Assembly: GCA_963760075.1 (NCBI GenBank)
Contig: CAVXBQ010000003.1
Location: forward strand, 1 to 32,000
Source of the DNA: an uncultured delta proteobacterium
GTDB taxonomy: Bacteria; Desulfobacterota; Desulfuromonadia; Geobacterales; Pseudopelobacteraceae
Direction of reading: 5' to 3'
DNA length: 32,000 nucleotides
The translations under genes were made by a program, and so were the position numbers. Below are positions 5,949 to 29,942 of this stretch, piece after piece. The notes under the pieces were generated by a model. The model made no database searches. It had not been told where the DNA came from and was given only the letters and a program-made list of their open reading frames with translations. How positions within the stretch are numbered: position 1 is the first letter of the stretch; each line of letters opens with the position of its first letter.

Positions 5949-5953
5949 TTTCC
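5949..5953. repeat. Target-site duplication, left copy (TTTCC)
   Basis: TTTCC immediately precedes the terminal TGT at 5954. An identical TTTCC sits at 29938-29942, immediately after the terminal ACA. Confidence 0.85.
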
Positions 5954-6095
5954 TGTCCCTGTAAAGTAAAGTTGTATACTTGCAGCAATTATTTTTCAAT
6001 AGTTTACAAAAGTGAGCGCCTGTCAACCAGAAAATAAAGTTGTATACCGACTTCATTCAGACCTCCCAATGGGTGGAAAAAAAAAGTTGTATACT
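5954..6095 (+). repeat. Left end: terminal TGTCCCT plus three spaced 20-bp putative TnsB-type binding repeats
   Basis: L1 5961-5980 GTAAAGTAAAGTTGTATACT; L2 6029-6048 AGAAAATAAAGTTGTATACC; L3 6076-6095 GAAAAAAAAAGTTGTATACT. All three are in direct orientation. Confidence 0.85.
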
Positions 6096-6208
6096 GGCGA
6101 AACAGCCCCAATCTATGGCAAATGAGCTATTCGCCCCTTAGCCTTGAAACCGCTCATCCTATTGGCATGCATCTTCGCTAACTCCAACCCAAAACCCATT
6201 TTATTAAC

Positions 6209-6355
6209 TATTGGTGGCTGTACTTTATTATGTCTATGTGATGCTTACCTTCATTGAGAGGTATCAACCGCCAGATATAACCACATTCACATTCCTTTAT
6301 TGGACTTCCCATTGACGTATATCCCTGTGCTTCGTAGACATCTATCTTCCTGTTT
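6209..6355 (+). repeat. Copy 1 of a ~146-bp inverted repeat pair
   Basis: By eye about 90% identical to the reverse complement of 22595-22740. For example, TTACCTTCATTGAGAGGTATCAAC and CATTCACATTCCTTTATTGGACTTCCCATTGACGTATATCCCTGTGC are shared. A 2-nt indel breaks any common reading frame. Confidence 0.8.
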
Positions 6356-6496
6356 TGGCAATTCGGACATTTCATTTACATTACCTCATGATTGTTTTTA
6401 ATTTACATACAATATAACTAAGTTATCGGAGCCGTATTCAGTCCAAACCGTATCTATACCCTTTTTAAACCAACCAAATTGTTGATGGCAGAATTA

Positions 6497-7489
6497 TCAA
6501 ACAAGCTGATTGACAGCGCCGTCAGGTTTTTCGTTATTCAATGCCCGTATGATGTTCCAAGCAGCTTCCATAGCTATCTCTCTCCGGACATCATCGACTG
6601 CCGAGCCGATATGAGGAGTAAGAAAGGTTTGTTCAGCATTGTCCAAAAGGGGCTGAGGAATGGCGAGGGAGCGATCTGTGCGCGCCCAGTCCTCCATCTC
6701 AAATACGTCTGCGGCATAACCGGCAAGGCATCCAGAAGCAAGTGCATCCACAACTGCATTTTCGTCCACAACAGAACCCCGACAGGCATTAATGAGCAGA
6801 CTGCCGTGCTTCATCATCGCAATTGCTTTGGCGTTAATCAGATGCTTGGTGGCCGGCCTGAGTGGAACCAGCGGAATGATGAAATCGCTTGTTTTCAATA
6901 GTTCTTCAAGGGAGACGTAGGTTACATTTAGCGCTCCCTCGCTTTCTTTAGCAATGGGTGTGATATCATTATATATTACCTTTGCACCGAATCCCGACAA
7001 TCGCATCGCTACTGCCTGGCCCACGGATCCCATTCCTATGATGCCAACTGTTGCGCTATTTAGTCCCATTCCATAGAATTTCGGCAACCAACCTCTAAAC
7101 GATCCACTGCGCACATACCTGTCCCCCTGAGGCATTCTGCGAGAAAGGCCAATGAGCAAACCGATGGTTAGTTCAGCAGTGGGAACTGTCAAAAGGTCGG
7201 GAACTATAGTGAACCATACTCCATGGTGCGTGCAAGCTTCGATATCAAAGTTATCGTACCCCTTCAGTGCGGCGGCCACGATTCTCAACTCCGGACAGGC
7301 CTTGAGAAACTCGTTATCGATGCTGTCAGGCATAAACACCATGATGGCCTGTGCGTCAACAGAGCGACGGATTATTTCCTCTTTCTGCAAGGTCTCACGG
7401 GTAAGGTTCGGTATGACCTCACAATGCTGACCCAAGAGTTCCACGACTTCTGGATGCACCCAGTGAGTTATGACGACTTTTGGTTGCAT
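6497..7489 (-). CDS. ptxD: NAD-dependent phosphite dehydrogenase
   Basis: 330 aa, collinear with Pseudomonas stutzeri PtxD as I remember it. Shared segments include [75 protein letters not shown] and TPHIGSA. It lies directly downstream of ABC transporter genes. Confidence 0.9.
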
Positions 7490-7501
7490 GCATTCACCCC
7501 G

Positions 7502-8317
7502 CTACTTAAATCGTTTGCGTAAGAATTGGCCAGACCCGTCAACAATAGTGACCATAATGAGAATTACCAGCAAAATGGCCGAAACATCCCGATACTGCAT
7601 GATACGCAGGGAACTCATTAACTCAAATCCGATGCCGCCCGCGCCGACCATCCCCATCACCGTAGATGCCCGGAAATTGTATTCCCAGCGATAGATCGTG
7701 ACATCGGCCATGTGAGGCACCACTTGTGGAAGAACGCCATGGAGTATGACCTGAAGGGGGCTCGCGCCGGACGACTTTACAGCTTCTATTGGCCCTTCGG
7801 AGGCATGCTCGATGGATTCGGCAAAAAACTTGCCGACCATGCCGACCGAGTGGAGTCCGAGCGCCAGCACGCCGGGCAGTGCCCCGAAGCCGACGGCGGC
7901 GACGAACAGTATCCCCATTATCAGTTCCGGTATCGAGCGCAAACCGTTTAATATCCCGCGTGCCGCGTGGTAGACGACCGGGTGAGGCGAGGTGTTGCGT
8001 GCCGCGAGGAGAGAAAGAGGGAGGGAGATCACAACCGCCAGCGCCGTTCCGGCGACGCTCATTGCCAAGGTGTCCGCAAGCGGCCTGAACCAGTTGCGGG
8101 CATCGTGGAAATTGGGCGGCATGCATTCCCGGATCAATCCGATGATGCTCGGTATGCCTTCCTGCAATCTCTTCGTGTCGAGAAGGCCGGTATACCATGC
8201 GCATAGTACCACGATGACGATGGCAGCCGTCATCCGCAAAAGGGAACCGTACCACTTCCTCTTCTGGTGAAGGATCAGATGGGCATAGGCATGGTCTATC
8301 GACTGGGCGTCTTGCAT
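7502..8317 (-). CDS. ptxC: Phosphite/phosphonate ABC transporter permease (PhnE family)
   Basis: 271 aa, multi-TM, with the PhnE-type motif EAVKSSGASPLQVILHGVLPQV...GAGGIGFEL. Operon position between ptxB and ptxD. Confidence 0.85.
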   Translation of the reverse strand: MQDAQSIDHAYAHLILHQKRKWYGSLLRMTAAIVIVVLCAWYTGLLDTKRLQEGIPSIIGLIRECMPPNFHDARNWFRPLADTLAMSVAGTALAVVISLPLSLLAARNTSPHPVVYHAARGILNGLRSIPELIMGILFVAAVGFGALPGVLALGLHSVGMVGKFFAESIEHASEGPIEAVKSSGASPLQVILHGVLPQVVPHMADVTIYRWEYNFRASTVMGMVGAGGIGFELMSSLRIMQYRDVSAILLVILIMVTIVDGSGQFLRKRFK

Positions 8318-8320
8318 TGC

Positions 8321-9193
8321 CTAGATTTTTGCCAGATCAAGGTTGAGAATGTGGGCAAGGTCACGGATCACGTTGTATTCCTTATCGGTAACCGCGCCGA
8401 AGCCGTCCGCCTTGAAGGGTTTCAAAACGCCCTTGTCCGTAAGGTTCAGAAATGCGTTCCGTATTTTTTCCTTCAGTCCCGGAGTTAAATCGGAGCGCAT
8501 GGTCCAGGGATATTCCGGATAGGGTTTCGATTCGGCGAGGACATGCACCTTGGCCAGGTCGATGATCTTGCGCTCAACGAGTGATTCGAAGATGGGTTTG
8601 CTCAAACCTCCGGCCTGGGCCGTGCCGTTCTGGACAGCAATCGCGACCGCGTCGTGGGAACCGACAAAATGTTCTCTGTAGTTTTTCTTTGTTTCCAGCC
8701 CTTTTTCTTTCAGCATCGACTTGGGTATCAGATGACTCGAAGTTGACGCTACGTCGCCGTATGCCATGTCTTTCCCGGCTATGTCGGAAATGGAACGGAT
8801 GCCGGATGCCGCGTTCGCAATGACGACTGCCTGATACGTTGTACGTCCTTTTTTCTTAAGCGCCGCAAAGGCCTCGATATTGCTCTTCGACTTCGCCAGC
8901 ACGTAGGACAACGGTCCAAAGTAGGCAAGATCCAGTCGGCCATGGCGCATGGCCTCTATCATCGACGAATAGTCGGTGGTCACCACGAGTTCAATTTTCT
9001 TGCCGAGACTGGACTCGAGGTAACGTTTCAATCCATCGTTATTCTTGATTACGGTCGACCCGTTTTCATCGGGGAGCAGCGCCACCTTGAGGGTTTTCGG
9101 ATCAGGATCGCTTGCAGCGAACAAGGTGTTGAAGCAGAACAGGGTGGTGAGCACCACTCCGATAACAACCAGAACTTTTTTTTGCATTTTCAT
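8321..9193 (-). CDS. ptxB: Phosphite/phosphonate periplasmic binding protein (PhnD family)
   Basis: 290 aa with a signal peptide. PhnD-like motifs include LKVALLPDE, TDYSSMIEAMRHGRLDLAYFGPLSY and SHLIP. Confidence 0.85.
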   Translation of the reverse strand: MKMQKKVLVVIGVVLTTLFCFNTLFAASDPDPKTLKVALLPDENGSTVIKNNDGLKRYLESSLGKKIELVVTTDYSSMIEAMRHGRLDLAYFGPLSYVLAKSKSNIEAFAALKKKGRTTYQAVVIANAASGIRSISDIAGKDMAYGDVASTSSHLIPKSMLKEKGLETKKNYREHFVGSHDAVAIAVQNGTAQAGGLSKPIFESLVERKIIDLAKVHVLAESKPYPEYPWTMRSDLTPGLKEKIRNAFLNLTDKGVLKPFKADGFGAVTDKEYNVIRDLAHILNLDLAKI

Positions 9194-9210
9194 TCCCCCT
9201 TTTGACAGGA

Positions 9211-10017
9211 TTAGATGGCTGCGAAGTCGGCAAAGTTTTCGGCCCAGCTGCCTGCGTATGAATCATACCGGCCGCTTTTTCGAAGCTCCCCGCTATTGTA
9301 AATCTTATCCACCATGTTATTAGTCAATTCATCAGGACTCCCCTCGAAAACGACTCTGCTTGATGCCAGTCCTACGATGTGATCAGCAAACCTCCTTGCC
9401 ATTTCAACCTGGTGAAGGCTGACTACAGCGGTGATGCCGTCCTCTTTGCATATGTCATGAAGCAATGACAACACTCTGATTGCTGAGGCAGGGTCCAGGC
9501 TGGCAATCGGCTCATCGGCCAAGACGATCTGAGGTCTTTGGGTAAGAGCCCGGGCGATACCGACACGCTGTTGTTCTCCACCGCTCAGATTACTCACCCG
9601 CTCCATTGCCTTGTGCAACAGTCCGACGCGGTCCAGGGATTCGATCGCAATAAGGATTTCGGTCTTTGGAAGGGGGAACAGGCTCCGCAACGCGGTATGA
9701 TAGCCGAGACGGCCTATCAGTACGTTTTGGAGTACCGTGTGACGGCCGATCAACTGGTGCTGCTGGAAGATCATGGCCGTATGCCTGCGGTGCATCTTGA
9801 GCAGTCTGCCTTCGCTCAGAACACCCAATCCCTCAACGGAAACATGCCCCGAATTGGGTCTGACCATAAAGTTCAGACAGCGCAGTAATGTGGACTTGCC
9901 CGAACCCGAAGGTCCCAGCAGCACGGTAAACCGGCCCGCTTGAAAGGTGGTGGAAGTAGAACAGAGGGCTGCCGTACCTCCCGGATAGGTGACGCTGACA
10001 TTATTCATTTGCAACAT
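9211..10017 (-). CDS. ptxA: Phosphite/phosphonate ABC transporter ATP-binding protein (PhnC family)
   Basis: Walker A GPSGSGKST, ABC signature LSGGEQQRV and Walker B IVLADEP. It is the first gene of the ptx operon. Confidence 0.9.
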   Translation of the reverse strand: MLQMNNVSVTYPGGTAALCSTSTTFQAGRFTVLLGPSGSGKSTLLRCLNFMVRPNSGHVSVEGLGVLSEGRLLKMHRRHTAMIFQQHQLIGRHTVLQNVLIGRLGYHTALRSLFPLPKTEILIAIESLDRVGLLHKAMERVSNLSGGEQQRVGIARALTQRPQIVLADEPIASLDPASAIRVLSLLHDICKEDGITAVVSLHQVEMARRFADHIVGLASSRVVFEGSPDELTNNMVDKIYNSGELRKSGRYDSYAGSWAENFADFAAI

Positions 10018-10235
10018 CTGAACGCCTATTGGATATCAGTAATATGAACTTTTGTGAGGTGACTATATCAGTTAATTGTTGCAGGGATATGACGATACAG
10101 TTAAATGTTTGTGTTTGATAAACCACATGCACTATTGGCCCTACTTAGTGGCGAGGCGGCCAACCTCGGACGCAACCTCGTGGCCGTGGAGAGATGATGA
10201 AAAGCGCATTTCCGCACCATACAGAAATGCCAAGA

Positions 10236-11885: not shown

Positions 11886-13205
11886 ATGCCAAAAAACTTC
11901 ATCTTAGACACCAACATCATTCTTCACGACTGCCAATCAATTTTTAATTTCGACGACAACAATGTCATTATACCAATGACTGTCATCGAAGAGCTTGACC
12001 ATTTCAAAAAAGAGATGAATGAGCTTGGGAGAAACGCAAGACAATTTAGTAAAATAATGGACTCGTTTAGAGAGAAAGGCTCTTTGATAGAAGGGGTTAA
12101 GGTAGGTAAAGGGACTGTCTCAGTAGGATTCAGCAGACAAGATGCCCTGAATCTGCTTCCTTCTGAGCTGGATCCGAAGATAGCTGATAACCGCATACTT
12201 GCGATTGCGCTTTTTACTCAAAAACACGACTCCAACCCGACAATTTTAATCACTAAAGACACTAACCTCCGAATAAAGGCGGATGCATTAGGGTTATCAG
12301 CAGAAACGTACGAAAATGATAAAGTGGATTTTGAAACTCTGTTCTCAGGTCACACAGAGTTCGTTGACCAGCTCAAAGCAAACCAGTTTGTATCCAGGGA
12401 TGATGAAAGTGCAATTAAAAGGTACGACAAGACTCAGGATATGCTTGTGCCTCTCAGATCAGATTTGGATGCTTGGGGACTATCGCCGAGAAACAATGAG
12501 CAAAAGATGGCAATGGATCTACTTCTGAATGATGAAATAAAGTTGGTGACTCTAGTAGGAAAGGCCGGGACAGGAAAGACCCTGCTGAGCATAGCCGCAG
12601 GTCTGCGAAAAGTAACGGATGATTTTGTTTACAAAAAAATGCTGGTTTCTCGTCCTGTATTTCCGATGGGTAAAGATATTGGCTTTCTCCCAGGTGACAT
12701 TAACGAGAAACTTGCTCCTTATATGCAACCAATTTATGACAATATAGAATTTCTCATGTCAGGGCAGCATGCTCCCAAAGTTAAGGTTGTAAAGACATCA
12801 AAACGCCAAACCAAAGCAGACAACCAGGCGCAGGCAGACCTGGATGAAAAAGAGTACGGCATGCTGGGCAAAGGGCACATGGAGTTGGTCGCTGCGGGTA
12901 TTATGGATATTGAGGCTCTAACCTACATCCGTGGCCGCTCAATTCCCAATCAATACATGATTATTGACGAAGCACAGAACTTAACTCCTCATGAAATTAA
13001 AACTATTGTGACAAGAGCAGGCACAAACACCAAGTTGGTTTTCACAGGGGATCCGGCACAGATTGATAACCCATACCTCGATGCATCCTCTAACGGACTT
13101 ACTTATCTGGTGGAGAAGTTTAAAGATGAAGCCATTGCTGGGCACGTAACCCTGACTCATGGTGAGAGGTCTGAATTAGCGGAGATAGCATCAAATATTT
13201 TATAA
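11886..13205 (+). CDS. PIN-domain / PhoH-like ATPase fusion (PhoH2 / YlaK type)
   Basis: N-terminal PIN (FILDTNIILHD ... ADNRIL ... ITKDTNLRIKA). C-terminal PhoH P-loop ATPase (GKAGTGKTLLS, IRGRS, IIDEAQNLTPHE, GDPAQID). Confidence 0.9.
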   Translation: MPKNFILDTNIILHDCQSIFNFDDNNVIIPMTVIEELDHFKKEMNELGRNARQFSKIMDSFREKGSLIEGVKVGKGTVSVGFSRQDALNLLPSELDPKIADNRILAIALFTQKHDSNPTILITKDTNLRIKADALGLSAETYENDKVDFETLFSGHTEFVDQLKANQFVSRDDESAIKRYDKTQDMLVPLRSDLDAWGLSPRNNEQKMAMDLLLNDEIKLVTLVGKAGTGKTLLSIAAGLRKVTDDFVYKKMLVSRPVFPMGKDIGFLPGDINEKLAPYMQPIYDNIEFLMSGQHAPKVKVVKTSKRQTKADNQAQADLDEKEYGMLGKGHMELVAAGIMDIEALTYIRGRSIPNQYMIIDEAQNLTPHEIKTIVTRAGTNTKLVFTGDPAQIDNPYLDASSNGLTYLVEKFKDEAIAGHVTLTHGERSELAEIASNIL

Positions 13206-13269
13206 AAGTTGAAATTTAACTAATAGAATGTTGACTGGCGTTAAAGCTTTTGAAGCGTTCTACAATTTA

Positions 13270-14001: not shown

Positions 14002-14805
14002 CTAAAGACGCGGGCTGTAGTGACGCTTGAGCCAGCGGCTCAGGCCGTCAAGCCCTGGAAAGAGGACCCGTTCATTGATATTTGCCTGGTCGAGTTTGTC
14101 GCGTACCTCCCATTTCAGGGAGGAAGGGATGATGATCTTGCGGGCAATGCGTGGATACAAGGCCAGCCAATCGTCTAATACCATGCAGGGGTCCGACATC
14201 ATCGAACAAAAGGCGTACTGATTAACGATGCGGTCGTCGATGGAGGGTGGCTCGAAAAAGATGGCAACCTTTTCATTTGCCAGGGAATCCAGCTCCTGGA
14301 GTGAATTAATCGACTCAGACAGCATCTCGACCGTCATGACATTTGCTCCCTCCAGCTCCAGCCTACTCTTTAATACCGCCGGGAGCAGCTCGTGTGCTTT
14401 GACATAATTGACCGCCCAGATAACTCCGTCTGCATTAAATTTATCGATATTGGCCGTCGCAAAATGCATGGCAATGAAGGGGGAATAAGTCCAGTCGAGT
14501 ATCCGCGTTGGCAGCCCATAATGTTGGGCGACTGAGAGCCAATGCCAGATGGAATCGCGCTCCACTACACTGCGGTGCGCGTATTTTTTAAAATTCCGCA
14601 ATAGGTGCCGTTCCAGCTCGCCATAAGGCCCACCCAGCCGATTCAAGGTGGTCTCCAGACGATAGGAGGAATCCGATAGGCCCCGAAAGGCGAAGCGCGA
14701 ACGGAAACGTCTTAGGTCCTGATTCCAGGAGTCGGCAAAAAGTTCGCTCTGTAGTTCATCCCATGAGCTGACGACGAGTGTTTCCACGTAAGATATCCTT
14801 TCCAA
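14002..14805 (-). CDS. FRG-domain protein
   Basis: FAFRGLSDSSYRLETTLNR and QHYGLPTRILDWTYSPFIAMHFA match the FRG domain signature as I know it. It lies 41 bp downstream of the phosphoesterase gene on the same strand. The start is TTG 14805 or GTG 14787. Confidence 0.8.
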   Translation of the reverse strand: MERISYVETLVVSSWDELQSELFADSWNQDLRRFRSRFAFRGLSDSSYRLETTLNRLGGPYGELERHLLRNFKKYAHRSVVERDSIWHWLSVAQHYGLPTRILDWTYSPFIAMHFATANIDKFNADGVIWAVNYVKAHELLPAVLKSRLELEGANVMTVEMLSESINSLQELDSLANEKVAIFFEPPSIDDRIVNQYAFCSMMSDPCMVLDDWLALYPRIARKIIIPSSLKWEVRDKLDQANINERVLFPGLDGLSRWLKRHYSPRL

Positions 14806-14846
14806 TCGGGTTCATTGATGTTTTTCTGTAGCACAATACCGGACAG

Positions 14847-16583
14847 TTATCTGTTCGGCGGCGTCCCCTTGGCGTTTCCTGCACCTTTGGCCGTAAAAAT
14901 TGTACTCAGATCCTTGACCGCTGCGTCCCTATCACCCAGTGGGGAAAGGCCGAAGCGGCGTTCAATAGTGGCCAAGATCGAGGTCGTGTCGTGCCCCTCA
15001 TGATCTACCGCGTAATCATGGCTCAGATTTGGAGCAAAGATCAGGGCCGGAATACGCGTGCCGGGCCCCCACTGGTCATAGGGACCTTTGAAATTGCCGG
15101 GACCTGGCGGCGCTACATGGTCGGCCTGGCCGCCGAACTCGTCGTAAGTGATGATAACCATGGTATCCTTGGCACAGATACTTTCTTCGATAGACTTGAT
15201 CAGTTTCACTAAGTGGTTGTTGCCGGTCCATTCGCTGGCGTAACCGGGGTGTTCATTGTCGGCGCCGAGTGGCTTGATAAAGCTGACCGTCTTGAGGTTG
15301 CAGCGGTCGCGCTTGGACGACGTGGCTAGCTGGGTGAATTCGACTTCGTCACGCAGATGTTTTTTCCGTGCCTCGCTGCCGGGGGCGTATGCGGCGAAAT
15401 AGTTGAACGGCTGGTGATGGAACTGGAACAGCTTGTCCGGGCACTGCGGCCAGGTCGATCCTGCAAAGGCGTTTGTAGGGCAGGTCGGACCGTTGCCGTT
15501 GGAGAAGCCCATCTGCGCCAGGTCACCTTCGGCATTTGCCCAGCCGCCTGAGTACCAGGCCCAGTCGATGCCCGCCATGGTCAAGCGGTCGCCAATGGTT
15601 GGCGTTGTCAGCGGCGGCAAGCGTTTTGCGTCGGCTGTTAGCGGATCGTAGGGCCATGCCTTTGGCTGTATGGTATTGATCGCATAATTACCACAGACTA
15701 CGCTGGCCGGGGTTGCGCTATGCGTCACCGGCGGTGTGCAGGAGGCGGTTAGAGCTAGGTCTTTCACCATGTCCTTGACAGGCGAAACGTAGAGTGGAGT
15801 GTTCTTTGGCATGCCGTTGCCATCAACAACCGAGTGCAGATCAAGGGACGAACCATCATTGACGGCGTCGATCCACTCGGGGGTTCGTGCCGCGATCAGC
15901 CACTGGTGATTGAGAAATGAGCCGCCGAACGCCGCTTGAAAAAAATTGTCGGCAATGACGTAGTGAGGATGTCCGGTTGTATGCAGATATTTGTAGACCG
16001 GCAGGTCCTTTGTCTCGTAATAGCCCATAGTCAGGCCGGCGGCATTGCAGCCGACCACGTAACGATCCTGCCTTCCGCCGTCAAGCTGGTACTGTTCCTG
16101 GTAGAAGCGATGATCCAGGTCCATGGTGCATCCACCCACTTCCCCCTTGCCCTTGGCAATGCCGTTGGGGGATTTCTCATCCGGCTTCGGGCAGGTCGTG
16201 TCCCCGGTGGCGATATACCTCCCGATCGGAAAAGGGGTATTGCCGAAATTGCTGACGATATGGCGGTTTGTGTCGGTGCAGGTCACGGCAAGCGGGTCTG
16301 GCGAAGTCAGATTGACGTCTTTCTGTGGCAGGCACCCCAGTACCCCGCCCTGCTGGTCGATTTGGGGTATATGCGCGTTGGCCAGTCCATTGACCCCTTC
16401 CCATCCACCGAAGAGGTTGTCGAAACTGTGGTTCTCCTGGTAGATCACGACGATGTGATTGATATTCCGCAGGGGCTCCCGTACGTCGGCGGCATGGGTA
16501 ACCGCAAATGGATAGAGCAGCATGGCGCTTACCGCCAGAACGGAATGTGTGAGAGGTGTGAGAGGTCGTATTGCAAAAGTCAT
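14847..16583 (-). CDS. Secreted phosphoesterase-family enzyme (AcpA acid phosphatase / non-haemolytic phospholipase C type)
   Basis: IVVIYQENHSFDNLFG near the N-terminus, TMVIITYDEFGGQADHV and PGTRIPALIFAP toward the C-terminus, and a signal peptide. The preferred start is ATG 16583, preceded by AGGAG. The ORF track start is 16625. Confidence 0.85.
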   Translation of the reverse strand: MTFAIRPLTPLTHSVLAVSAMLLYPFAVTHAADVREPLRNINHIVVIYQENHSFDNLFGGWEGVNGLANAHIPQIDQQGGVLGCLPQKDVNLTSPDPLAVTCTDTNRHIVSNFGNTPFPIGRYIATGDTTCPKPDEKSPNGIAKGKGEVGGCTMDLDHRFYQEQYQLDGGRQDRYVVGCNAAGLTMGYYETKDLPVYKYLHTTGHPHYVIADNFFQAAFGGSFLNHQWLIAARTPEWIDAVNDGSSLDLHSVVDGNGMPKNTPLYVSPVKDMVKDLALTASCTPPVTHSATPASVVCGNYAINTIQPKAWPYDPLTADAKRLPPLTTPTIGDRLTMAGIDWAWYSGGWANAEGDLAQMGFSNGNGPTCPTNAFAGSTWPQCPDKLFQFHHQPFNYFAAYAPGSEARKKHLRDEVEFTQLATSSKRDRCNLKTVSFIKPLGADNEHPGYASEWTGNNHLVKLIKSIEESICAKDTMVIITYDEFGGQADHVAPPGPGNFKGPYDQWGPGTRIPALIFAPNLSHDYAVDHEGHDTTSILATIERRFGLSPLGDRDAAVKDLSTIFTAKGAGNAKGTPPNR

Positions 16584-16834
16584 AGGGTCTCCTGCGGAGG
16601 GATGGATATTCTGGAAGTGTACCATAAGGAAATTATTTTAAACAATGCGGGGTCTGAATACATTCCTGTCTTTTTCCGTATTGGCTACCGGGTCGTAAAA
16701 TGAATATTGTGACTGAGCCTGATAAGAATCGCGCAACAAGCGCAGCTTATAAATCTGTATATCTAGTTCGGCAAAACCGCCCCTAAAAGGTTGGTGACAC
16801 CATGTGACCAGTGATGCCAGATACCCAACCATGG

Positions 16835-18387: not shown

Positions 18388-18417
18388 ATTGTTTCAAACT
18401 ACTATGAAGGATTTGCA

Positions 18418-19005
18418 ATGAGTATACAGACGTTTCGCTACGGCGATAGAGGTACGATTATATCAGTATCTGGTGTGGTACCTTCACTTAATACACGTTG
18501 CTGGACACGGGAATGGGATGTTTTATCATCTCAGGACAAAGCCGGAATAATGGACCAACTACAGATTCTATTTGACGGTAAAGATGAAGATCATGATTTT
18601 CTTGGTCAGCGAGCCGGGCTTATAGTAGATGAAATGCTGGAAAATGCTCTCTATTCCGCTCCTCGCAATGACACCGACACCCCTCTATTTACAAAAGGAA
18701 GCAAGCGCAAACTTCTTCCGAATGAAAAAATTTCACTCCGGTGCGCATTTGACGGTAAAGAGCTTTTTCTGGAGGTAAGGGACAGTTGGGGAAGCCTGTC
18801 ACCAGAAATAGTAGAGTTCTATTTAACTTTGAACCAAAGCGGCGCTGATCCTGTAGGTGACAGAGCCGGACGTGGTCTATATATCATGTGGAAGTTTTTG
18901 GATTATTTTTATGTAGATATAGATCCAGGCGAAAAGACCTCAATGGGTGGAATCCTTAGCCTATACCCAACAAATTTAGAAAAAGGAGAAACAAATGGAT
19001 ATTGA
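18418..19005 (+). CDS. HATPase-fold serine kinase / anti-sigma-like protein (RsbW/SpoIIAB type)
   Basis: N-box-like EMLENALYSAP, a G1-like motif VRDSWG and a G2-like motif GRGLYIM. AAGGA RBS. The 3' end overlaps the STAS gene start by 11 bp. Confidence 0.7.
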   Translation: MSIQTFRYGDRGTIISVSGVVPSLNTRCWTREWDVLSSQDKAGIMDQLQILFDGKDEDHDFLGQRAGLIVDEMLENALYSAPRNDTDTPLFTKGSKRKLLPNEKISLRCAFDGKELFLEVRDSWGSLSPEIVEFYLTLNQSGADPVGDRAGRGLYIMWKFLDYFYVDIDPGEKTSMGGILSLYPTNLEKGETNGY

Positions 19006-19306
19006 ATTCAAATATGAAATATTTAAGGATAGAGTGGGTGATAACATTTCATTTTACGGTAACATCGACTCACATGCAGAGCCGCATTTTGAACAGCTTG
19101 TCCAGAGAGTCACTGGGAAAAAAGTTATTATGGACTTTAGTAATACCGTGCGCATCAATTCGATGGGTATTGCCATCCTGCTTAGAACGATCAAGAGCAT
19201 CAAGACGGTGAAAAATTCAGAAGTTTCAGTCATCGGAGAGAATAAGACGAATGCCTTGGTGTTCAAAATAACTGGCCTTTATACACTCACGACTCCGCAC
19301 ACGTAA
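18995..19306 (+). CDS. STAS-domain anti-sigma-factor-antagonist-like protein (RsbV/SpoIIAA type)
   Basis: 103 aa. DFSNTVRINSMGIAILL contains the conserved phosphorylatable Ser context. AAGGAG RBS. Confidence 0.8.
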   Translation: MDIEFKYEIFKDRVGDNISFYGNIDSHAEPHFEQLVQRVTGKKVIMDFSNTVRINSMGIAILLRTIKSIKTVKNSEVSVIGENKTNALVFKITGLYTLTTPHT

Positions 19307-22594: not shown

Positions 22595-22740
22595 AAAACA
22601 GGAAAATAGATGTCTATGAAGCACAGGGATATACGTCAATGGGAAGTCCAATAAAGGAATGTGAATGAGGTTATCTGGAGGTTGATACCTCTCAATGAAG
22701 GTAAACATTACATGGACATAATAAAGTATGAACACCAATA
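22595..22740 (-). repeat. Copy 2 of the ~146-bp inverted repeat pair
   Basis: The reverse complement aligns with 6209-6355 (see copy 1). Confidence 0.8.
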
Positions 22741-22870
22741 GGCCTAAGGCTAATTGCCCTCTAGTCACAGAGAAATAATCAATAAATATTTCAAAAAGTT
22801 GTGACAGGTTTTGTGTTTTATCAACTGAGATCTTAAGTCTGCAAGCAGGTCGCTAAGGAGAATAAATAAT

Positions 22871-23179: not shown

Positions 23180-23232
23180 TTTTATAAATATCTAGTGACC
23201 CCGGGCCTGTAAAATAGTTTGTGTAAGAGGTG

Positions 23233-23358
23233 AAAATGGACTTCTGAAACAACTGACCAAGAGACTTTTAGAACGGGCAATGCAAGCTGAACTAACCGAG
23301 CATCTTGGTTACGAGAAACACGCTCCTCAAGCCAGGAACACTGGCAACTCCCGAAACG
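23233..23358 (+). pseudogene. IS256-family (mutator-type) transposase N-terminal remnant
   Basis: GLLKQLTKRLLERAMQAELTEHLGYEKHAPQARNTGNSRNG matches the conserved N-terminal region of IS256-family transposases. There is no start codon, and similarity is lost after about 42 codons. Confidence 0.75.
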
Positions 23359-23993
23359 GTGGCCACGTTCCTGCGCCTCATGCACGTCCTGAAGCCTTCC
23401 AGATTTATCTTTGCGAACTTTGCTTATCGACCAGGAGCAGAATTCCGCATTCCACCGCGAGTTACTCGACTTCTTGATTGAGAACCCTGTCCCAGCCATT
23501 GCTTTTGGCAAAAGGCCAATTTTTGTCAAAGTCCCAAAGCCAGCACGATTCGCCGTGTATAATTTGATTATCTTCCAAATGCAAGGGTCTGATCAAAACC
23601 TGGCAGATAAATATCTTCGGCAGGCTTATGTGATTATGGATGTTCTTAAGAAGGACATTCCACAGCGTTTGCGGGAGCAAAAAGTCAGCTCAGGCGAGAA
23701 ACCATGAATGGGGAGACTTAATAGAATCAGCTATAAAAACTATGTGTGAGAGAATGAAAAGGTAGCAGCAACCGCTCATAAATAGTACAAGGGGGAATAC
23801 ATGAAAATAGGAAGTATGTAGAAAGGTCATCCTTGCTCACTCCAGAAGAGAAACAGAGGTTCGGACTTATTGTTCACCAGTTGAGGAAGAAAGGCTTTAG
23901 CTTGAAGGCTGCTCAGGAGTTAGCATATAGTAGCGTTTTGTGCGAGGATATACCTATTGAGCCTACATGAAGGTAACGTGTGAAAAAAGGATA

Positions 23994-24792: not shown

Positions 24793-24906
24793 ATGCGTCA
24801 CTATCGACATGGTGCTTACCGAGTAATAAGAGATCCTGAAGGTGCCATTTCACTTTGGGCAATAGAAGAAGAGGCTATAGAGGTCATTAAGGAACTGAGG
24901 AAATAA
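24793..24906 (+). CDS. Possible 37-aa leader ORF coupled to the next gene
   Basis: MRHYRHGAYRVIRDPEGAISLWAIEEEAIEVIKELRK. Its TAA overlaps the ATG of the next gene (TAATG). It falls below the ORF-track threshold and has no other support. Confidence 0.3.
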   Translation: MRHYRHGAYRVIRDPEGAISLWAIEEEAIEVIKELRK

Positions 24907-25397
24907 TGCACATTAAAATATTAGCTATCGGAATCACTCTATTTCTTTGTCTAAATATACCTGCAATGGCAGAAATGTATAAAATTGAGAATCCAGCATC
25001 TAATATTGACAATCCAGCAAGTCGGATGGATAACCCAAATCCATTATCACCTCCTACGCAACCTATGCCACAGCCACCAGTGGAAAAAAATACTACTACA
25101 CCTATACCATCATCACAGGGCATAGAACGACCACATCCTAAACATCAATTCAAACATAATACCCCTCAAAATAGCTATCACTTCAAAACAGCTAACGAGT
25201 ATTTAGATGCAGTTAAAAAAACATTTAATCGTAAAAACTATCAGAAAGCACTTTCAATCACAGAGGAGGCTCTTGGACGCATAAGGTCCGGAACGCTTAA
25301 AGCCTCTAAGAAAACAAAGAATAAACTCAATGAGTACAGAGTATCTGGATATGAGTTTCTGAATAAAATGAAGAGTAAAGAGGTTAAAGAACCATGA
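24906..25397 (+). CDS. Secreted hypothetical protein
   Basis: Signal peptide (ILAIGITLFLCLNIPAMA), a Pro/Asn-rich linker containing a repeated NPAS[NR][IM]DNP motif, and a basic C-terminal domain. The stop overlaps the next start (ATGA). Confidence 0.65.
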   Translation: MHIKILAIGITLFLCLNIPAMAEMYKIENPASNIDNPASRMDNPNPLSPPTQPMPQPPVEKNTTTPIPSSQGIERPHPKHQFKHNTPQNSYHFKTANEYLDAVKKTFNRKNYQKALSITEEALGRIRSGTLKASKKTKNKLNEYRVSGYEFLNKMKSKEVKEP

Positions 25398-25702
25398 CCA
25401 AGGCTGATATTGCAGAACGCATACAATTTAATACTGGCATGACAAAGAAGGAATCTCTTGAGATATTGGAAGGCATCTTTACAATTGTGAAGACCACACT
25501 TGAGGCAGGTGAGAAGATTAAGATATGTGGCTTTGGGAACTTCGAGGTTAAGCAGAAGAAAGAGCGTAGAGGACGTAACCCACAGACAGCAGAAACCATT
25601 ACCATTGAAGCCAGGAAGATATTAAGCTTTAAGCCGAGCATGGTGCTAAGGTCTGCAATAAATGAAAACATTAATAACTCTTGTGCTCAATATGGTGAAT
25701 AA
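25394..25702 (+). CDS. HU/IHF-family DNA-binding protein, IHF-alpha-like
   Basis: MTKADIAERI...GFGNFEVKQKKERRGRNPQTAETITIEARKILSFKPS is collinear with IHF alpha (GFGNF...GRNP.T...F.P). Confidence 0.85.
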   Translation: MTKADIAERIQFNTGMTKKESLEILEGIFTIVKTTLEAGEKIKICGFGNFEVKQKKERRGRNPQTAETITIEARKILSFKPSMVLRSAINENINNSCAQYGE

Positions 25703-25703
25703 C

Positions 25704-26546
25704 ATGTCAGGACAGGTAGTTACAAAAGCCATAAAAAACCTTATACTTTCTCAACCTATTGACATTCCAGTCTTTCATGAAGTGGCCTTGCGTTTGCTGC
25801 AAATGATGAATGACCACTCATATAGAATTGAAGAAGCAATAACATTAGTCAATGAAGACACAGCATTAGCTTCTTTAATGCTTAGATACGCTAATAGTAC
25901 TTATAATTCAGGTAAAACGCCAATTACTACAATAAAGAATGCAATCGTTAGGCTAGGCTCTCAACAGATCGTAAATCTCGCATTTACAGCAAGCATGGCA
26001 AATAGTAAATCTGACAATCCAGTTATAAACACATATATAAAAAATCTTTGGCATCATAGTCATGCTGTAGCTATTACGAGTGCATGGTTGGCAGTACAGG
26101 TAAGGCATGACAACAAAATACCCGATATAAATACTGATGAAGTATATTTGGCTGGATTATTTCATGATATTGGGAAGTTGTACTTATTGAAGTCAATGGA
26201 TAGATTTATTAAAGCTGAACTATTGCAGGCTGATAACGGTTTAATAGATGAATTTATTGAGGAACTTAGTATTCAGCAAGGCATAAGAGTAATGCAGTAT
26301 CTGAACATTCCAAAAATATATTCAAATTCGGTAGAAAGACATATCACAAATAATTGGAAGTGTGGAACAAATGATAATTTAGTAGCTGCTGTCAGATTGG
26401 CCTGTAAAATTCATCATTATATTGAGCAAGGAATTGAAGTAACAGAAACTGGTGAAGAATTTGAACTGGTTAAAGATGAGTTATTCTTGTTAGATATAGA
26501 TGATGTAACTTATGTGTGTGATTTTGTAAAGTCTATATCTGGTTAG
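25704..26546 (+). CDS. HDOD-domain signalling protein
   Basis: PVFHEVALRLLQMM, AIVRLG and AGLFHDIGKLYLL are typical of HDOD. The start is chosen 1 nt after the IHF-like stop; the ORF track starts at 25662. Confidence 0.8.
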   Translation: MSGQVVTKAIKNLILSQPIDIPVFHEVALRLLQMMNDHSYRIEEAITLVNEDTALASLMLRYANSTYNSGKTPITTIKNAIVRLGSQQIVNLAFTASMANSKSDNPVINTYIKNLWHHSHAVAITSAWLAVQVRHDNKIPDINTDEVYLAGLFHDIGKLYLLKSMDRFIKAELLQADNGLIDEFIEELSIQQGIRVMQYLNIPKIYSNSVERHITNNWKCGTNDNLVAAVRLACKIHHYIEQGIEVTETGEEFELVKDELFLLDIDDVTYVCDFVKSISG

Positions 26547-26716
26547 TGAGCGTCTAAAAGCTTTAACCTACAAACACAGATGCCATATCAATTATGAGAT
26601 CACTTCGCCCTCTTATTCATATTCCCTACGAGCTTTAATATACATCCCCGAAGTTCAACATTCTTGATCTTCCTGAATGCCTGTAGCAACTGGTCCTCTT
26701 CACCAGTAAGCCTCAC

Positions 26717-26911
26717 ATGCTGCGTAGGAACTGTACGTTCTATCAATTAACAGCAGCAATGGGACTCAATGCCTTCATGGTGCCAGAACCAGATCCAATC
26801 AATTCTATATGTCTGCTCAATAACAAAGAAATACGCGAATACCTGGGCAACAAATGGGAGGGTATGAATCCACTAGCAATAGTCAAGCAGCTAATCAACT
26901 ACCTGTACTGA
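26717..26911 (+). CDS. Small protein, P-family copy 2 (N-terminally diverged)
   Basis: The C-terminal EPDPINSICLLNNKEIREYLGNKWEGMNPLAIVKQLINYLY is near-identical at DNA level to 28395-28517. The true start may be ATG 26759. Confidence 0.5.
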   Translation: MLRRNCTFYQLTAAMGLNAFMVPEPDPINSICLLNNKEIREYLGNKWEGMNPLAIVKQLINYLY

Positions 26912-26949
26912 ATGGCATAAAATATGTGTCCGAGCGGATAACGTGGGAA

Positions 26950-27342
26950 CTATCGGTCAATGTATGGCGATATGAGGTCATCGAATTCATCAGCAGACTT
27001 GCACTTCGTTTTTCCAACCCAACAATCTGAACTCTGCGAATCAATATAGCTGACGAAACCAATTATCTTGCTATCAGAAACACTGTAGAGATAGATCGTA
27101 GCATGGACTTTCCCATCATTCTGATGCTGATAAAATGCAGCACGAGCAAAGCATCCTGCAAGTTTTTTACTGTAATGGATATTACTAGAGAAGGGTTTAC
27201 CAATGCGGTTGATCAGTTCATAGCCATCATTGACACATTTGTCTTCAAGCGAAAGTGGGCTTTGTTGAGCATATGCAGTTGCAGACAGAGCTTGAACGAA
27301 AAGGAAAAACGAGAAAATTATGGTTGATTTCGCAGTTGTCAT
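26950..27342 (-). CDS. Secreted hypothetical protein
   Basis: Signal peptide (IIFSFFLFVQALSATAYA) and 4 Cys in the mature part. It is the last gene of a four-gene minus-strand cluster. Confidence 0.65.
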   Translation of the reverse strand: MTTAKSTIIFSFFLFVQALSATAYAQQSPLSLEDKCVNDGYELINRIGKPFSSNIHYSKKLAGCFARAAFYQHQNDGKVHATIYLYSVSDSKIIGFVSYIDSQSSDCWVGKTKCKSADEFDDLISPYIDR

Positions 27343-27395
27343 AAGCCAGGTCCTTTAAGATGTACCCAATGACTGCCATTACATATGCAGACTGG

Positions 27396-27737
27396 TTATA
27401 CGTACAGGTTTACTATCCCAGAAGAACTTTCGGCAGTCGTATTTTTCTTATGTGCCGCTTTTTGAGATGGTTTAGCCTTACTCTTACTGTTGCCCATATC
27501 TTTTTTCTCAGAATCCTTTTGAACAGATGTCTCATTGGTATTGGTAGCAGATTTGGTATCACTGGAACTTTTCAACAATTTACCAAATATTTGGCTGGCA
27601 AATGTTGGTGCTGACCCTTTAGTAGCATTAGTTTGTTGTGCCGTTTGGTTGGCTTTGCTTTTGTGTCCGCCTCCCGATTTATGGGCAGCTTGAGTCTGAT
27701 CGGGAACAGGTGGTATCTGAATTAGTGCTACTGACAT
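27396..27737 (-). CDS. Low-complexity Lys/Ser/Thr-rich (probably disordered) protein
   Basis: 113 aa, biased composition, in an operon with the IHF-beta-like gene. Confidence 0.5.
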   Translation of the reverse strand: MSVALIQIPPVPDQTQAAHKSGGGHKSKANQTAQQTNATKGSAPTFASQIFGKLLKSSSDTKSATNTNETSVQKDSEKKDMGNSKSKAKPSQKAAHKKNTTAESSSGIVNLYV

Positions 27738-27758
27738 AGAACAGGCTCCTCCTACGTT

Positions 27759-28061
27759 CTATTCAACATGTAACTGCTCTCTGCCACTCTCCAGAATCCG
27801 ATCTCTTAGATCCTTACCAACCTTGAAGAATGGACGCTTTTTAGCAACAACAGTAACTTCATTACCTGTCTTAGGATTCCTACCTGTACGGCCATCATAG
27901 TCTCGAATCTGAAAACTACCAAAACCTCTTAACTCAATTCCATCACCAGCAACAAGGGATTCAGACATACTGACAAATACTTCGAGAATAATAGTCTCAG
28001 CAGTTTCCATGTTGAGGTTTTTACTCTTAGCCAGCATTTCTATCAATTCAGATCTTGTCAT
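27759..28061 (-). CDS. HU/IHF-family DNA-binding protein, IHF-beta-like
   Basis: MTRSELIEML...IELRGFGSFQIRDYDGRTGRNPKTGNEVTVVAKKRPFFKVGKDLRDRI is collinear with IHF beta. Confidence 0.85.
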   Translation of the reverse strand: MTRSELIEMLAKSKNLNMETAETIILEVFVSMSESLVAGDGIELRGFGSFQIRDYDGRTGRNPKTGNEVTVVAKKRPFFKVGKDLRDRILESGREQLHVE

Positions 28062-28213
28062 AAATCCCTCTCCGCAAGTGCAATTACCCGCTTAGACCAC
28101 TCAATAGCCCGATAGTAGCGTTCTATTTGTTCAGCAGAAGTATGCTTGCCATTGGTCATATCCAACGATGCCTCTTGCAATTCCTTCAATGCCGCCAGTA
28201 GATCATCTTCCAT
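28058..28213 (-). CDS. Small helical hypothetical protein
   Basis: MEDDLLAALKELQEASLDM...RVIALAERDL. The stop overlaps the IHF-beta-like start (ATGA). The start is uncertain; the ORF track gives TTG 28279. Confidence 0.45.
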   Translation of the reverse strand: MEDDLLAALKELQEASLDMTNGKHTSAEQIERYYRAIEWSKRVIALAERDL

Positions 28214-28305
28214 CAGTGTCACAGCTAACCTCCATAAAATCAGAATGCTATCTAGCACAACAAATCCATTCAAGTCCAAGACTTTATTAAGAAAGGAGTA
28301 TTACC

Positions 28306-28517
28306 ATGACGCTACACACCCTATTCGGAACTAACGTAACAAAGCCACAGAAGATCCAGCTTAAACAGATCAAAGCAGTGTATGAGGTGTCAGAGCCTGA
28401 TCCAATAAATTCAGTATGCCTGCATAACAACAGGAAATACGGGAATACCTGAGCAACAAATGGGAGGGCATGAAACCAGTATCGATGGTGAAGCAACTAA
28501 TCAACTACCTATATTGA
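28306..28517 (+). pseudogene. Small protein, P-family copy 1, 1-nt frameshift
   Basis: AAGGAG RBS. MTLHTLFGTNVTKPQKIQLKQIKAVYEVSEPDPINSVCLHNN then stops at 28450-28452. The conserved tail EYLSNKWEGMKPVSMVKQLINYLY continues in another frame to 28517. Alignment with copy 2 shows one missing nucleotide near 28425-28432. Confidence 0.6.
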
Positions 28518-28531
28518 AAGGAGGGAACACC

Positions 28532-28753
28532 ATGAGATGCGTGTACTACACCAGAAAGTTAAGTAACAGAGAGATTGTACATGGTATCCGATATGGAACT
28601 ACTGATGATAGAACTGATACTTTCCTACCAGATCGAGATTCAGCACCAGTGGTAATTTGTAATGTTTGTGGAGAAAAACTGCTCCGTCTGATCTATGTAA
28701 AACTCAATAGGCCAAATACCCATCCCACCTACAATACATTCAAACATACCTGA
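28532..28753 (+). CDS. Small hypothetical protein
   Basis: A strong AAGGAGG RBS lies 7 nt upstream of the ATG. 73 aa with one CxxC (CNVC). Confidence 0.6.
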   Translation: MRCVYYTRKLSNREIVHGIRYGTTDDRTDTFLPDRDSAPVVICNVCGEKLLRLIYVKLNRPNTHPTYNTFKHT

Positions 28754-28788
28754 TAACCTCCTTGTCAATTTAAGTACAATTTCAATAG

Positions 28789-29004
28789 TCACATTCCACA
28801 AAAACACCTTGGTCTCTTAAAGCCATCAGGTAATAGATTATGCGGTACATTATCTATTCCACGAGACAAAGCCATTTTGCGACGTGCACAGTTGGCAAAT
28901 TCACTATTACAGTATTCGACGCGTAATATTTCTTTGGTTTGGGTCTTATCTGAAGGTTCTTCATTGTAGAAACAACAGGTATTACAAAATTCACAGTTAG
29001 CCAT
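28789..29004 (-). CDS. Small Cys-rich protein (CxxCxxCC ... C...C type)
   Basis: MANCEFCNTCCFYNEE...YCNSEFANCARRKMALSRGIDNVPHNLLPDG. GGAGG lies 6 nt upstream of ATG 29004. It resembles an uncharacterised small-protein family I recall from anaerobes; this is unverified. Confidence 0.6.
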   Translation of the reverse strand: MANCEFCNTCCFYNEEPSDKTQTKEILRVEYCNSEFANCARRKMALSRGIDNVPHNLLPDGFKRPRCFCGM

Positions 29005-29089
29005 GATGACCTCCATTTTCAAAAAAATGGAATCTGGATAAAAACGACCATAATTCAGGTCAGTCAAACTATCAGATGAGGGTGATCTA

Positions 29090-29299
29090 CTATAAATAGC
29101 TCTGCTTATCATCAGGTAATTTAAGGAACTTCATATGATCGGGATGCAGGCAATAGGTGCAAGTCTTGCCGGCAAAGAGACCATATCTACACGCTTTATT
29201 GTTAACGGAGCATCTGGATAACTCGCAAGTAATCCGCTCTGTAGTACAAAACATTGTATCAGGTTCTGACTTCAATATTTCAACGTCCGGAGTCTGCAT
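29090..29299 (-). CDS. Small Cys-rich protein, HPDH-motif family member C
   Basis: C-x6-C-RY-x10-CLHPDHMKF aligns with members A and B. Confidence 0.6.
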   Translation of the reverse strand: MQTPDVEILKSEPDTMFCTTERITCELSRCSVNNKACRYGLFAGKTCTYCLHPDHMKFLKLPDDKQSYL

Positions 29300-29435
29300 T
29301 TAATTCCCCAGCAAGTGAATCAATCCTTCAGAAGCATACCATCCAAAACGTAGATGTAAATATTCCCAGCATAAAAAACCATCATCAGTACACAAAGGTC
29401 ATAAAGCCCTATTTTTGTTCTTAAAAGGAAATGCC

Positions 29436-29618
29436 GTGACACTACGTACCCCATTCGGAGCTAACGTAACAAAGACCGACTGCAAAGGTTTGAAACAGTT
29501 ACGTCAATTTATTGATAAAGAAATGACTGCCCAGTACGGTCCTAATTGGCCGAAGAAAAGACTAGCCCCCAAGACTTATCCATGTCTTATCCTCTTTTCT
29601 TTCAAACAATTAGTATAG
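29436..29618 (+). CDS. Small protein, P-family copy 3 (N-terminal homology only)
   Basis: GTG start after AAGGA. VTLRTPFGANVTKTDCKGLKQLRQF parallels MTLHTLFGTNVTKPQKIQLKQIKAV of copy 1. Confidence 0.5.
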   Translation: MTLRTPFGANVTKTDCKGLKQLRQFIDKEMTAQYGPNWPKKRLAPKTYPCLILFSFKQLV

Positions 29619-29716
29619 TGCACAACACAACTGCTTAAGGTTGCACGAGAGATTGCATACCCGTAAAAAAAACACTGGGTCACGACAAGTACTTATCGCA
29701 ACCCATATTTATTTTT

Positions 29717-29764
29717 TGGTGGAGCTGAAGAGGATCGAACTCTCGACCTACGCATTGCGAACGC
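29717..29764 (-). pseudogene. 3' fragment of a tRNA-Ala(CGC)-like gene (anticodon loop to CCA end)
   Basis: The minus strand reads ...CGCGTTCGCAATGCGTAGGTCGAGAGTTCGATCCTCTTCAGCTCCACCA. This gives a T-arm (GAGAG-TTCGATC-CTCTT) and a 3' acceptor strand CAGCTCC-A-CCA, with U70 as in tRNA-Ala. The loop TTCGCAA would give anticodon CGC. No D-arm or 5' acceptor strand lies upstream. Confidence 0.7.
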
Positions 29765-29816
29765 GGCGTGACATAGGGGTAAAATAAAAGGGCGAGGTCC
29801 GACAAACACCGCCCAC

Positions 29817-29937
29817 CAGTTCCACTTTATTTTCCCGAACTTTGAGGATGGAGCCCCTCCCTTTCGGCCTAGTATACAACTTTATTTTCCGGTATAAGAC
29901 ATTATTTTCCAGTATAGAACTTTATTTTCTGAGGACA
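29817..29937 (-). repeat. Right end: terminal TGTCCTC plus three abutting 20-bp repeats and a fourth degenerate one
   Basis: Read as reverse complement from the tip: TGTCCTC, AGAAAATAAAGTTCTATACT (29911-29930), GGAAAATAATGTCTTATACC (29891-29910), GGAAAATAAAGTTGTATACT (29871-29890), a 34-nt gap, then GGAAAATAAAGTGGAACTGG (29817-29836). Confidence 0.85.
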
Positions 29938-29942
29938 TTTCC
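29938..29942. repeat. Target-site duplication, right copy (TTTCC)
   Basis: Identical to 5949-5953. It lies 20-24 nt downstream of the glmS stop codon. Confidence 0.85.

Follow-up and report, generated by a model that had tools for sequence, protein, structure and literature searches.

A 24-kb cargo-only derivative of a Tn7-type transposon in the attTn7 site of an uncultured delta proteobacterium

In mini-Tn7 vectors, the left and right ends of the transposon flank a cargo, and insertion into the attachment site attTn7 needs TnsABCD supplied by a helper. Class 1 integrons and other derivatives of the Tn402/Tn5053 family have lost their tni genes and kept the terminal inverted repeats, and they can be mobilised by Tni proteins acting in trans. 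Genomic islands in attTn7 were reportedly described by Parks and Peters in 2007. Here we describe a segment of 23,984 bp, positions 5954-29937 of a 32-kb window (the whole stretch that was analysed, positions 1 to 32,000 of contig CAVXBQ010000003.1 in the assembly GCA_963760075.1 of an uncultured delta proteobacterium), which derives from a close relative of prototypic Tn7 and keeps only cargo between its ends. The analyses support a Tn7-family insertion in attTn7 whose cis-acting ends are complete and which carries none of the tns genes. Its logic is the same as that of the mini-Tn7 vectors, but the vectors are man-made and no helper is known for the window element. With class 1 integrons, which are relatives within the Tn7 superfamily, it shares an adaptive cargo and the loss of the transposition module, whereas these integrons belong to another branch that lacks TnsA, targets res sites and has other ends and other targets.

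Islands made of the cargo of Tn7-like elements can outlast the decay of the transposition genes, and in A. baumannii a predicted functional element is present in 21 of the 54 genomes with an insertion at the glmS site (PMC11014353). In these decayed insertions, as in the window, cargo stays in attTn7 without transposition functions, and most of the occupied sites are predicted to be non-functional; in the window, however, neither the ends nor the duplication show any damage, and the tns module is missing altogether instead of surviving as pseudogenes. Degraded array-targeting Tn7-like elements of cyanobacteria, which have intact ends, occur in several identical copies and “could be mobilized in trans”, have been described as well (PMC11837452). 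They resemble the window element in their intact ends, in core genes that are defective or missing and in the mobilisation in trans proposed for them, but they keep tnsD and the wrecks of tnsAB and tnsC and are small, cargo-free and multi-copy, whereas the window element is 24 kb long, consists entirely of cargo and is known from a single site. It is the clean extreme of a described spectrum, with 24 kb of cargo, perfect ends and duplication and zero tns sequence. The situation has already been described for the Tn7 family, and the element represents neither a new kind of element nor a new mechanism. The literature search yielded no paper on this particular end family or on a Tn7-like element that has both ends intact and no tns genes whatsoever.

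The element has TGT tips at both termini (5'-TGT...ACA-3'). The left tip TGTCCCTG begins at 5954 and the right tip TGTCCTCA is the reverse complement of 29930-29937, in agreement with the termini given in the earlier note. The search for the 18-mer GAAAATAAAGTTGTATAC with up to three mismatches gave six matches in the 32 kb against 0.05 expected, a number reached in 0 of 100 shuffles, and all six are located at the two tips, in inverted orientation left versus right. The three left-end copies (plus strand; 5962-5979, 6030-6047 and 6077-6094) are spaced by 30-50 bp, while the three right-end copies (minus strand; 29912-29929, 29892-29909 and 29872-29889) abut with a 20-bp period and are accompanied by a degenerate fourth copy, GGAAAATAAAGTGGAAC, at 29819-29835. 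This is the asymmetric layout that had been claimed from reading the sequence, and no further match was found in the window at the same threshold, either inside or outside the element. The tips are flanked on both sides by the same TTTCC, as also claimed, which forms a 5-bp target-site duplication. The right end faces glmS, and its tip lies at the 24 nt from the glmS stop that had been stated before.

The TGT tips, the spaced left and abutting right sites, the 5-bp duplication, the orientation of the right end toward glmS and the insertion little over 20 nt past the stop are all shared with prototypic Tn7. The site motif is similar too (ACATTAAAGTTGTAAAC-type), and where elements with these ends encode TnsA and TnsB, the two proteins are clearly homologous to those of Tn7. 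The differences are that the window element has no tns genes, has its own 18-mer consensus and resides in a Geobacteraceae/Desulfuromonadales host, and that its cargo serves phosphite use and phosphorus scavenging, while that of Tn7 is an integron. The likeness to the TnsB sites of Tn7, which the earlier note had pointed out, was confirmed with L053, a tnsABCDE element annotated on a plasmid of A. baumannii, in which four abutting sites of the type ACAATATAGTTTTAAAC / ACATTAAAGTTGTAAAC stand directly upstream of tnsA and differ from the window consensus at 3-4 of 17 positions. A Calothrix plasmid element with tnsABCD (L052) was considered as a carrier of the same motif and rejected, as the motif is absent from it. 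Judging by these sequence resemblances, TnsB would bind the 18-mer sites and a TnsD protein would recognise glmS.

The analysis of the coding content agreed with the claim that no tns genes are present inside the element. Pfam was run on all plausible internal open reading frames (ORFs), and six-frame scans were added for the stretches without a recognised gene; these covered all frames of 26547-29941, the 3.4 kb by the right end, and elsewhere stop-to-stop segments of at least 45 amino acids (aa), and the six-frame references were scanned with stops masked as X. Neither the ORFs nor the six-frame scans of the element gave a TnsA, rve/Mu-type transposase, TnsC/TniB, TniQ/TnsD, integrase or resolvase domain. 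The only transposase trace in the element is a 47-residue Transposase_mut piece of the IS256 family (Pfam, E 2.8e-5), the remnant that had been noticed earlier, and the longest internal ORF, of 592 aa, encodes an acid phosphatase. Outside the element, the window contains host genes only and no further 18-mer sites. The searches for tns genes and sites cover the 32-kb window of the source contig, which is 486,871 bp long. Autonomous members of the Tn7 family encode the DDE transposase TnsB, the AAA+ regulator TnsC and a target selector of the TnsD/TniQ type, mostly together with TnsA, beside the right end. Because it has no tns genes, the element is not an autonomous Tn7-like transposon; it resembles Tn7 in the way it works and derives from that family.

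The 24-kb block is an insertion, because related genomes show the same glmS site empty. The GlmS of the window is 94% identical to that of Geobacteraceae bacterium GWC2_53_11 (L048/L049), and the proteins at this level of identity come from metagenome-assembled genomes named in the source as Geobacteraceae, Pelobacteraceae or Desulfuromonadaceae. The left flank of the window encodes a group-3-type NiFe hydrogenase and a glycosyltransferase; in GWC2_53_11, glmS is directly followed by VTT-domain, glycosyltransferase and NiFe-hydrogenase genes, which correspond to this left flank without the 24 kb. Two empty sites, L050 and L051, have the hairpin that stands beside the left end in the window (ATATCCyC...GGGGGATAT) about 35 nt past the glmS stop, and in L050 a single GGAAA, the complement of TTTCC, is present at the matching place on the glmS strand. 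An empty site of this form in relatives is what the earlier note had anticipated.

When 5948 is joined to 29938 in a conceptual excision, the reconstructed empty site reads ...GCGCTGGGGGAAAAAACTGTCCGAAAC... and a strong hairpin comes to lie about 35 nt past the glmS stop, arranged as in the relatives. The rejoined hairpin has 19 pairs including G-U, with a perfect core of 14 bp, a minimum free energy of -39.7 kcal/mol and z = -5.8. The 14-bp stem that excision had been said to restore is thus real, while its designation as the glmS terminator, from which the insertion would have cut the gene off, is only putative: a simple terminator scan did not report it, since part of the T-run falls within the stem. 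The locus is a fully delimited case of attTn7 becoming a genomic island, with both ends, the duplication and the empty site of relatives in hand.

The same ends were sought in other genomes. When one genome per species was scanned for TGTNNNNNNAAANTAAAGTTNTATAC, 35 loci were obtained, of which about 17 are expected by chance according to our own estimate from the information content of the pattern. The pattern has 18 specified bases and required a perfect first site, so that it favours well-preserved ends and the sample is biased. Roughly half of the 35 loci are real multi-site ends; about half (e.g., L003, L005 and L008-L010) are single-site chance matches and were set aside. Also set aside was L028, which has a good three-site left end but an apparent interior (514-2743) consisting of infC and a DEAD-box helicase gene; it may be an orphan end left in the core genome. 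A second pattern, for which two abutting sites were needed, gave ten metagenome loci.

The asymmetric end layout of the window recurs in at least 15 related loci. Right ends with three or four abutting sites are located 23-26 nt past the stop of an ORF of about 610 aa in L013 (Geobacteraceae, DASRZQ010000187.1), L022 (Pelotomaculum), L027 (Synechococcus), L035 (Gloeomargaritales, OV696605.1) and L007 (Peptococcaceae); the corresponding distance in L033 (Heliorestis, NZ_WBXO01000003.1) is 51 nt. This ORF is GlmS by Pfam in L013 and L033, and the right end of L041 adjoins a partial GlmS. The offsets of the left-end sites from the tip are 14/82/129 in the window, 14/81/134 in L004 and 14/84/129 in L028, and the first two are 14/82 in L034 and 14/81 in L011 and L032. 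The left end of the window is 75% identical over 146 bp to that of L046, and its right end is 82-89% identical over about 60 bp to those of L013, L024, L033, L041, L047 and others.

TnsA comes next to the right end in L022, L024 and L047, and in L047 it is itself followed by TnsB (Pfam); tnsA starts 139-249 bp from the tip in these three loci. The proteins of L047 match those of Tn7 with E 1e-103 for TnsB (7pik) and E 1e-49 for TnsA (1t0f). As the same architecture adjoins TnsA/TnsB elsewhere, the ends of the window belong to a widely distributed close relative of Tn7 that probably targets glmS. Its 18-mer site is nearly invariant across Desulfuromonadales, Peptococcaceae, Heliobacteria, Nitrospirota and cyanobacteria. 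The presence of this architecture beside TnsA/TnsB in other phyla also bears out the view that the repeats are not ancestral intergenic DNA. The survey thus defines a widespread close Tn7 relative, and its ends could reveal cargo-only elements that are invisible to TnsB-seeded searches.

Eight of the 11 right ends with a readable interior (L013, L033, L027, L035, L038, L039, L041 and L054) have no adjacent tnsA, and the remaining three (L022, L024 and L047) do. For the first seven of the eight, TnsA is absent from the visible interior of 2.2-5.5 kb, the related loci being at most 8 kb long. The earlier note had considered an element without transposition genes unusual for this family, a view that these counts and the similar elements described in PMC11014353 and PMC11837452 do not support. 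The eighth locus, L054 (JGI Ga0586909_0054952), belongs to the closest GlmS relative, at 97.2% identity, and has three abutting GAAAAATAAAGTTGGCTAC-type sites at 2460-2560, directly past the glmS stop; a TGT tip is missing, and the 0.6 kb available contain no tnsA. It is clearly another Tn7-like visitor, now decayed, whose right end occupies the same attachment site in a sister lineage.

Several arrangements were observed among the related loci. In L046, the left end of one element, 5 bp and then the right end of another follow each other at 850-950, forming a tandem array. In the metagenome Ga0272446 (L040, L042, L043 and L044), the same right end and internal sequence are joined to at least four different flanks, and the contigs break just inside the right end, as expected of an active multi-copy element. 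In the cyanobacterial loci L035 (5570-7513), L039 (216-2223) and L027 (424-3849), Uma2-family and HNH endonuclease genes occupy the place where tnsA is expected. Subterminally, L035 is similar in sequence to L047, a locus with tnsA next to the end, and therefore the kind of replacement considered below for the window may also have occurred in the cyanobacterial relatives.

For the history of the window element, we propose that an autonomous ancestor inserted at this site and that the tns module near its right end was lost or replaced afterwards, a reading to which we assign a probability of roughly 55%. The element would have been delivered by the TnsABC+TnsD pathway, in which a TnsD-type protein binds the 3' end of glmS and recruits TnsC; TnsA and TnsB would then have excised it at its TGT tips and inserted it downstream, at a distance of about 24 nt, yielding the 5-bp duplication. 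The tns genes may have disappeared by deletion, or by an exchange with foreign DNA whose edge would be marked by a 3' fragment of the transfer-messenger RNA (tmRNA) gene ssrA. The segment would now be a fixed genomic island, mobile only if cognate TnsABCD were supplied in trans, and, as its right-end sites are intact, this attTn7 should still be immune to cognate newcomers.

Fragments of the 3' end of ssrA usually mark the border of an integrase-borne island. The one in the window (...GUAGGUCGAGAGUUCGAUCCUCUUCAGCUCCACCA), whose final 31 nt align at high posterior probability, begins about 167 bp inside the right tip, and the likeness to the end family stops about 120 bp from that tip. Neither ARAGORN nor Rfam with gathering thresholds reported anything in the window, and the fragment came to light only in a local search judged by E-value. 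Its position is where tnsA begins in the autonomous relatives, which suggests an exchange with foreign DNA. The locus fits the pattern of an attTn7 island that arose by decay, with cargo kept, transposition functions lost and signs of later rearrangement; the usual decay of the ends is not seen.

Loss in place is favoured over the arrival of the present tns-less structure as a unit. Signs of remodelling are the patchy guanine-cytosine (GC) content of 0.37-0.57, the IS256 stub, a truncated gene and a 150-bp inverted duplication. The frequency of decay points the same way, with eight of 11 related right ends lacking an adjacent tnsA, L054 among them with its tip-less remnant, and PMC11014353 agrees with this. 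The matching TTTCC copies cannot show that the segment moved as a single unit, because every attTn7 insertion uses the same 5 bp, and in this respect the intact duplication had been over-read. On the other hand, several points weigh against loss in place. Nothing in the window dates the loss of tns, and the Pfam scans found no surviving fragment of a tns pseudogene, though piecemeal decay might leave some. All right-end sites are kept up to the foreign DNA, which fits a selected element mobilised in trans equally well. Moreover, the window is 32 kb of the source contig, so that a helper element elsewhere is possible, and the absence of tns in relatives means absence within the visible 2-5 kb, in a sample of ends that is biased by the pattern.

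An alternative is that the 24 kb already lacked tns when it was moved into attTn7 by TnsABCD provided in trans by a cognate autonomous element, one that either resides elsewhere in the cell or has disappeared since; it would then still be mobilisable as a true non-autonomous element. We regard this as possible, if on balance unlikely. In its favour, neither end lacks its TGT tip or any of its sites, the two copies of the duplication match perfectly, no tns debris is left, and foreign DNA begins exactly where the cis-acting region ends. Laboratory mini-Tn7 elements are established to move in this way, and autonomous relatives with near-identical sites exist (L022, L024 and L047). The degraded Tn7-like elements of PMC11837452 occur in several identical copies. 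For the window element, however, the searches gave no second copy: nothing in a metagenome collection matched 28 nt of the right end exactly, and the exact cargo proteins tested are confined to the source contig and to short contigs from two sequencing runs, of which the two readable ones are 99.98-100% identical in DNA and so come from the same population. The lack of a tns-less element at a second site or in a second host is a weak negative, as the depth of this search was limited, and the duplication, as explained above, is uninformative at attTn7. In megablast, the left flank had no match to E. coli genomes, and the element gave only spurious 60-bp matches to Rhizobium plasmids; the host is not enterobacterial. 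A further reading is a hybrid of two successive insertions. Here a second family member would have entered between glmS and a resident element, giving a tandem array, and a deletion inside the array would then have taken away the newcomer's left end and tns genes as well as the resident's tns genes and right end, so that the surviving cargo is now bordered by ends of two different elements. Tandem ends do occur in the family, as the left end, 5 bp and right end of L046 show, the composition of the cargo is patchy, and a perfect duplication would still be expected if attTn7 insertions re-use the same 5 bp. Nevertheless, this course is improbable, since no orphan end or site is present internally (18-mer with up to three mismatches, in the window) and target immunity, which is established for Tn7 and was shown for Tn6022 (PMC11014353), disfavours a second insertion beside a cognate end.

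It is very unlikely that the segment is not a transposon at all, whether its repeats are chance or ancestral intergenic sequence or the whole is a tyrosine-integrase island at ssrA or a tRNA gene. The ssrA 3' fragment inside the segment would suit such an island, but it is a single internal fragment, and the borders show TGT tips and a 5-bp duplication where such an island would have a repeated tRNA or tmRNA end. No integrase domain was detected in the scanned ORFs or six-frame scans, the six site matches against 0.05 expected all lie at the tips, and the same end architecture stands beside TnsA/TnsB elsewhere, while the sites of relatives are empty. Returning to transposon-based histories, a tentative and rather doubtful generalisation is that cargo-only Tn7 elements form a recurrent, selected class of large “natural mini-Tn7s” and are not wrecks. 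Such elements would keep perfect cis-acting ends, shed the tns module of about 8 kb, use the TnsABCD of autonomous relatives and hold attTn7 through target immunity; the window element, L013, L033, L027, L035, L039 and L041, from four phyla, would be its members.

The features of the element and its borders are listed in Table 1. The clearest functional reading of the cargo, as predicted from domain content, is phosphorus scavenging by means of the ptxABCD-type operon, the PhoH2-type protein and the acid phosphatase. It is of ecological interest that a Tn7-type vehicle brought a complete ptxABCD operon together with PhoH2 and acid phosphatase genes to a Geobacteraceae-like genome. The GC content of the element is mostly 0.37-0.45, with patches of 0.53-0.57, and that of the host flanks away from the junctions is 0.49-0.60. 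The ptx operon (7-10 kb of the window) has 0.53-0.54, and the stretches 7-10 kb and 14-17 kb together have 0.53-0.57, well above the remaining element.

Table 1. Features of the Tn7-type element and its borders in the 32-kb window
Feature	Position	Strand	Basis
Hairpin (putative glmS terminator), cut off from glmS by the insertion	5900-5938	-	Folding; conserved in the empty sites L050 and L051
Left target-site duplication copy, TTTCC	5949-5953	.	Read directly; identical to 29938-29942
Left end: tip TGTCCCTG and three spaced TnsB-type sites	5954-6094	+	Pattern search, read directly
ptxABCD-type phosphite uptake and oxidation operon	6497-10017	-	Pfam
PtxD	6497-7489	-	E 4e-142 to phosphite dehydrogenase 6ih2
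ptx permease	7502-8317	-	Pfam
ptx binding protein	8321-9193	-	Pfam
ptx ABC ATPase	9211-10017	-	Pfam
PIN-PhoH (PhoH2-type) protein	11886-13205	+	Pfam PIN_4 and PhoH; NCBIfam PhoH2 below its cut-off
FRG-domain protein	14002-14805	-	Pfam FRG
Acid phosphatase, phosphoesterase family, Burkholderia-type	14847-16625	-	Pfam Phosphoesterase; TIGR03397 acid_phos_Burk 341 bits, cut-off 363
Partner-switching-type module: CBS-SpoIIE phosphatase, HATPase_c_2 kinase-like protein, STAS protein	17191-19306	+	Pfam
Debris: IS256-family transposase N-terminal fragment (~23220-23360) abutting NTP_transf_8 C-terminal fragment (~23423-23680)	23220-23680	+	Six-frame Pfam
HU/IHF-type gene	25394-25702	+	Pfam
HDOD protein	25662-26546	+	Pfam
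Second HU/IHF-type gene	27759-28061	-	Pfam
tmRNA (ssrA) 3'-end copy	29717-29770	-	Rfam tmRNA E 1.4e-4, 15.7 bits, below gathering score
Right end: tip TGTCCTCA, three abutting 20-bp sites and one degenerate site	29819-29937	-	Pattern search, read directly
Right target-site duplication copy, TTTCC	29938-29942	.	Read directly
glmS, attTn7 landmark, stop included	29962-31791	-	NCBIfam TIGR01135 glmS, 831 bits

The 150-bp inverted duplication consists of 6208-6356 and 22595-22741, which are 89-96% identical and 16 kb apart, and it spans a small zinc-ribbon-like ORF (MKCPNCQNRKIDVYEAQGY...). It was considered as a second, internal transposon end and rejected, as the homology stops well before the Tn7 sites and no sites are present near 22.8 kb. 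As an inverted repeat, it could permit inversion of the 16-kb segment.

The block from the first to the second HU/IHF-type gene also holds small unknown ORFs, and a small multihaem cytochrome and many further small unknown ORFs belong to the cargo. The partner-switching module is compact and carried as transposon cargo, with no sigma factor gene recognised adjacent to it. The IS256 stub and the C-terminal third of the NTP_transf_8 nucleotidyltransferase gene represent two successive truncations within the cargo.

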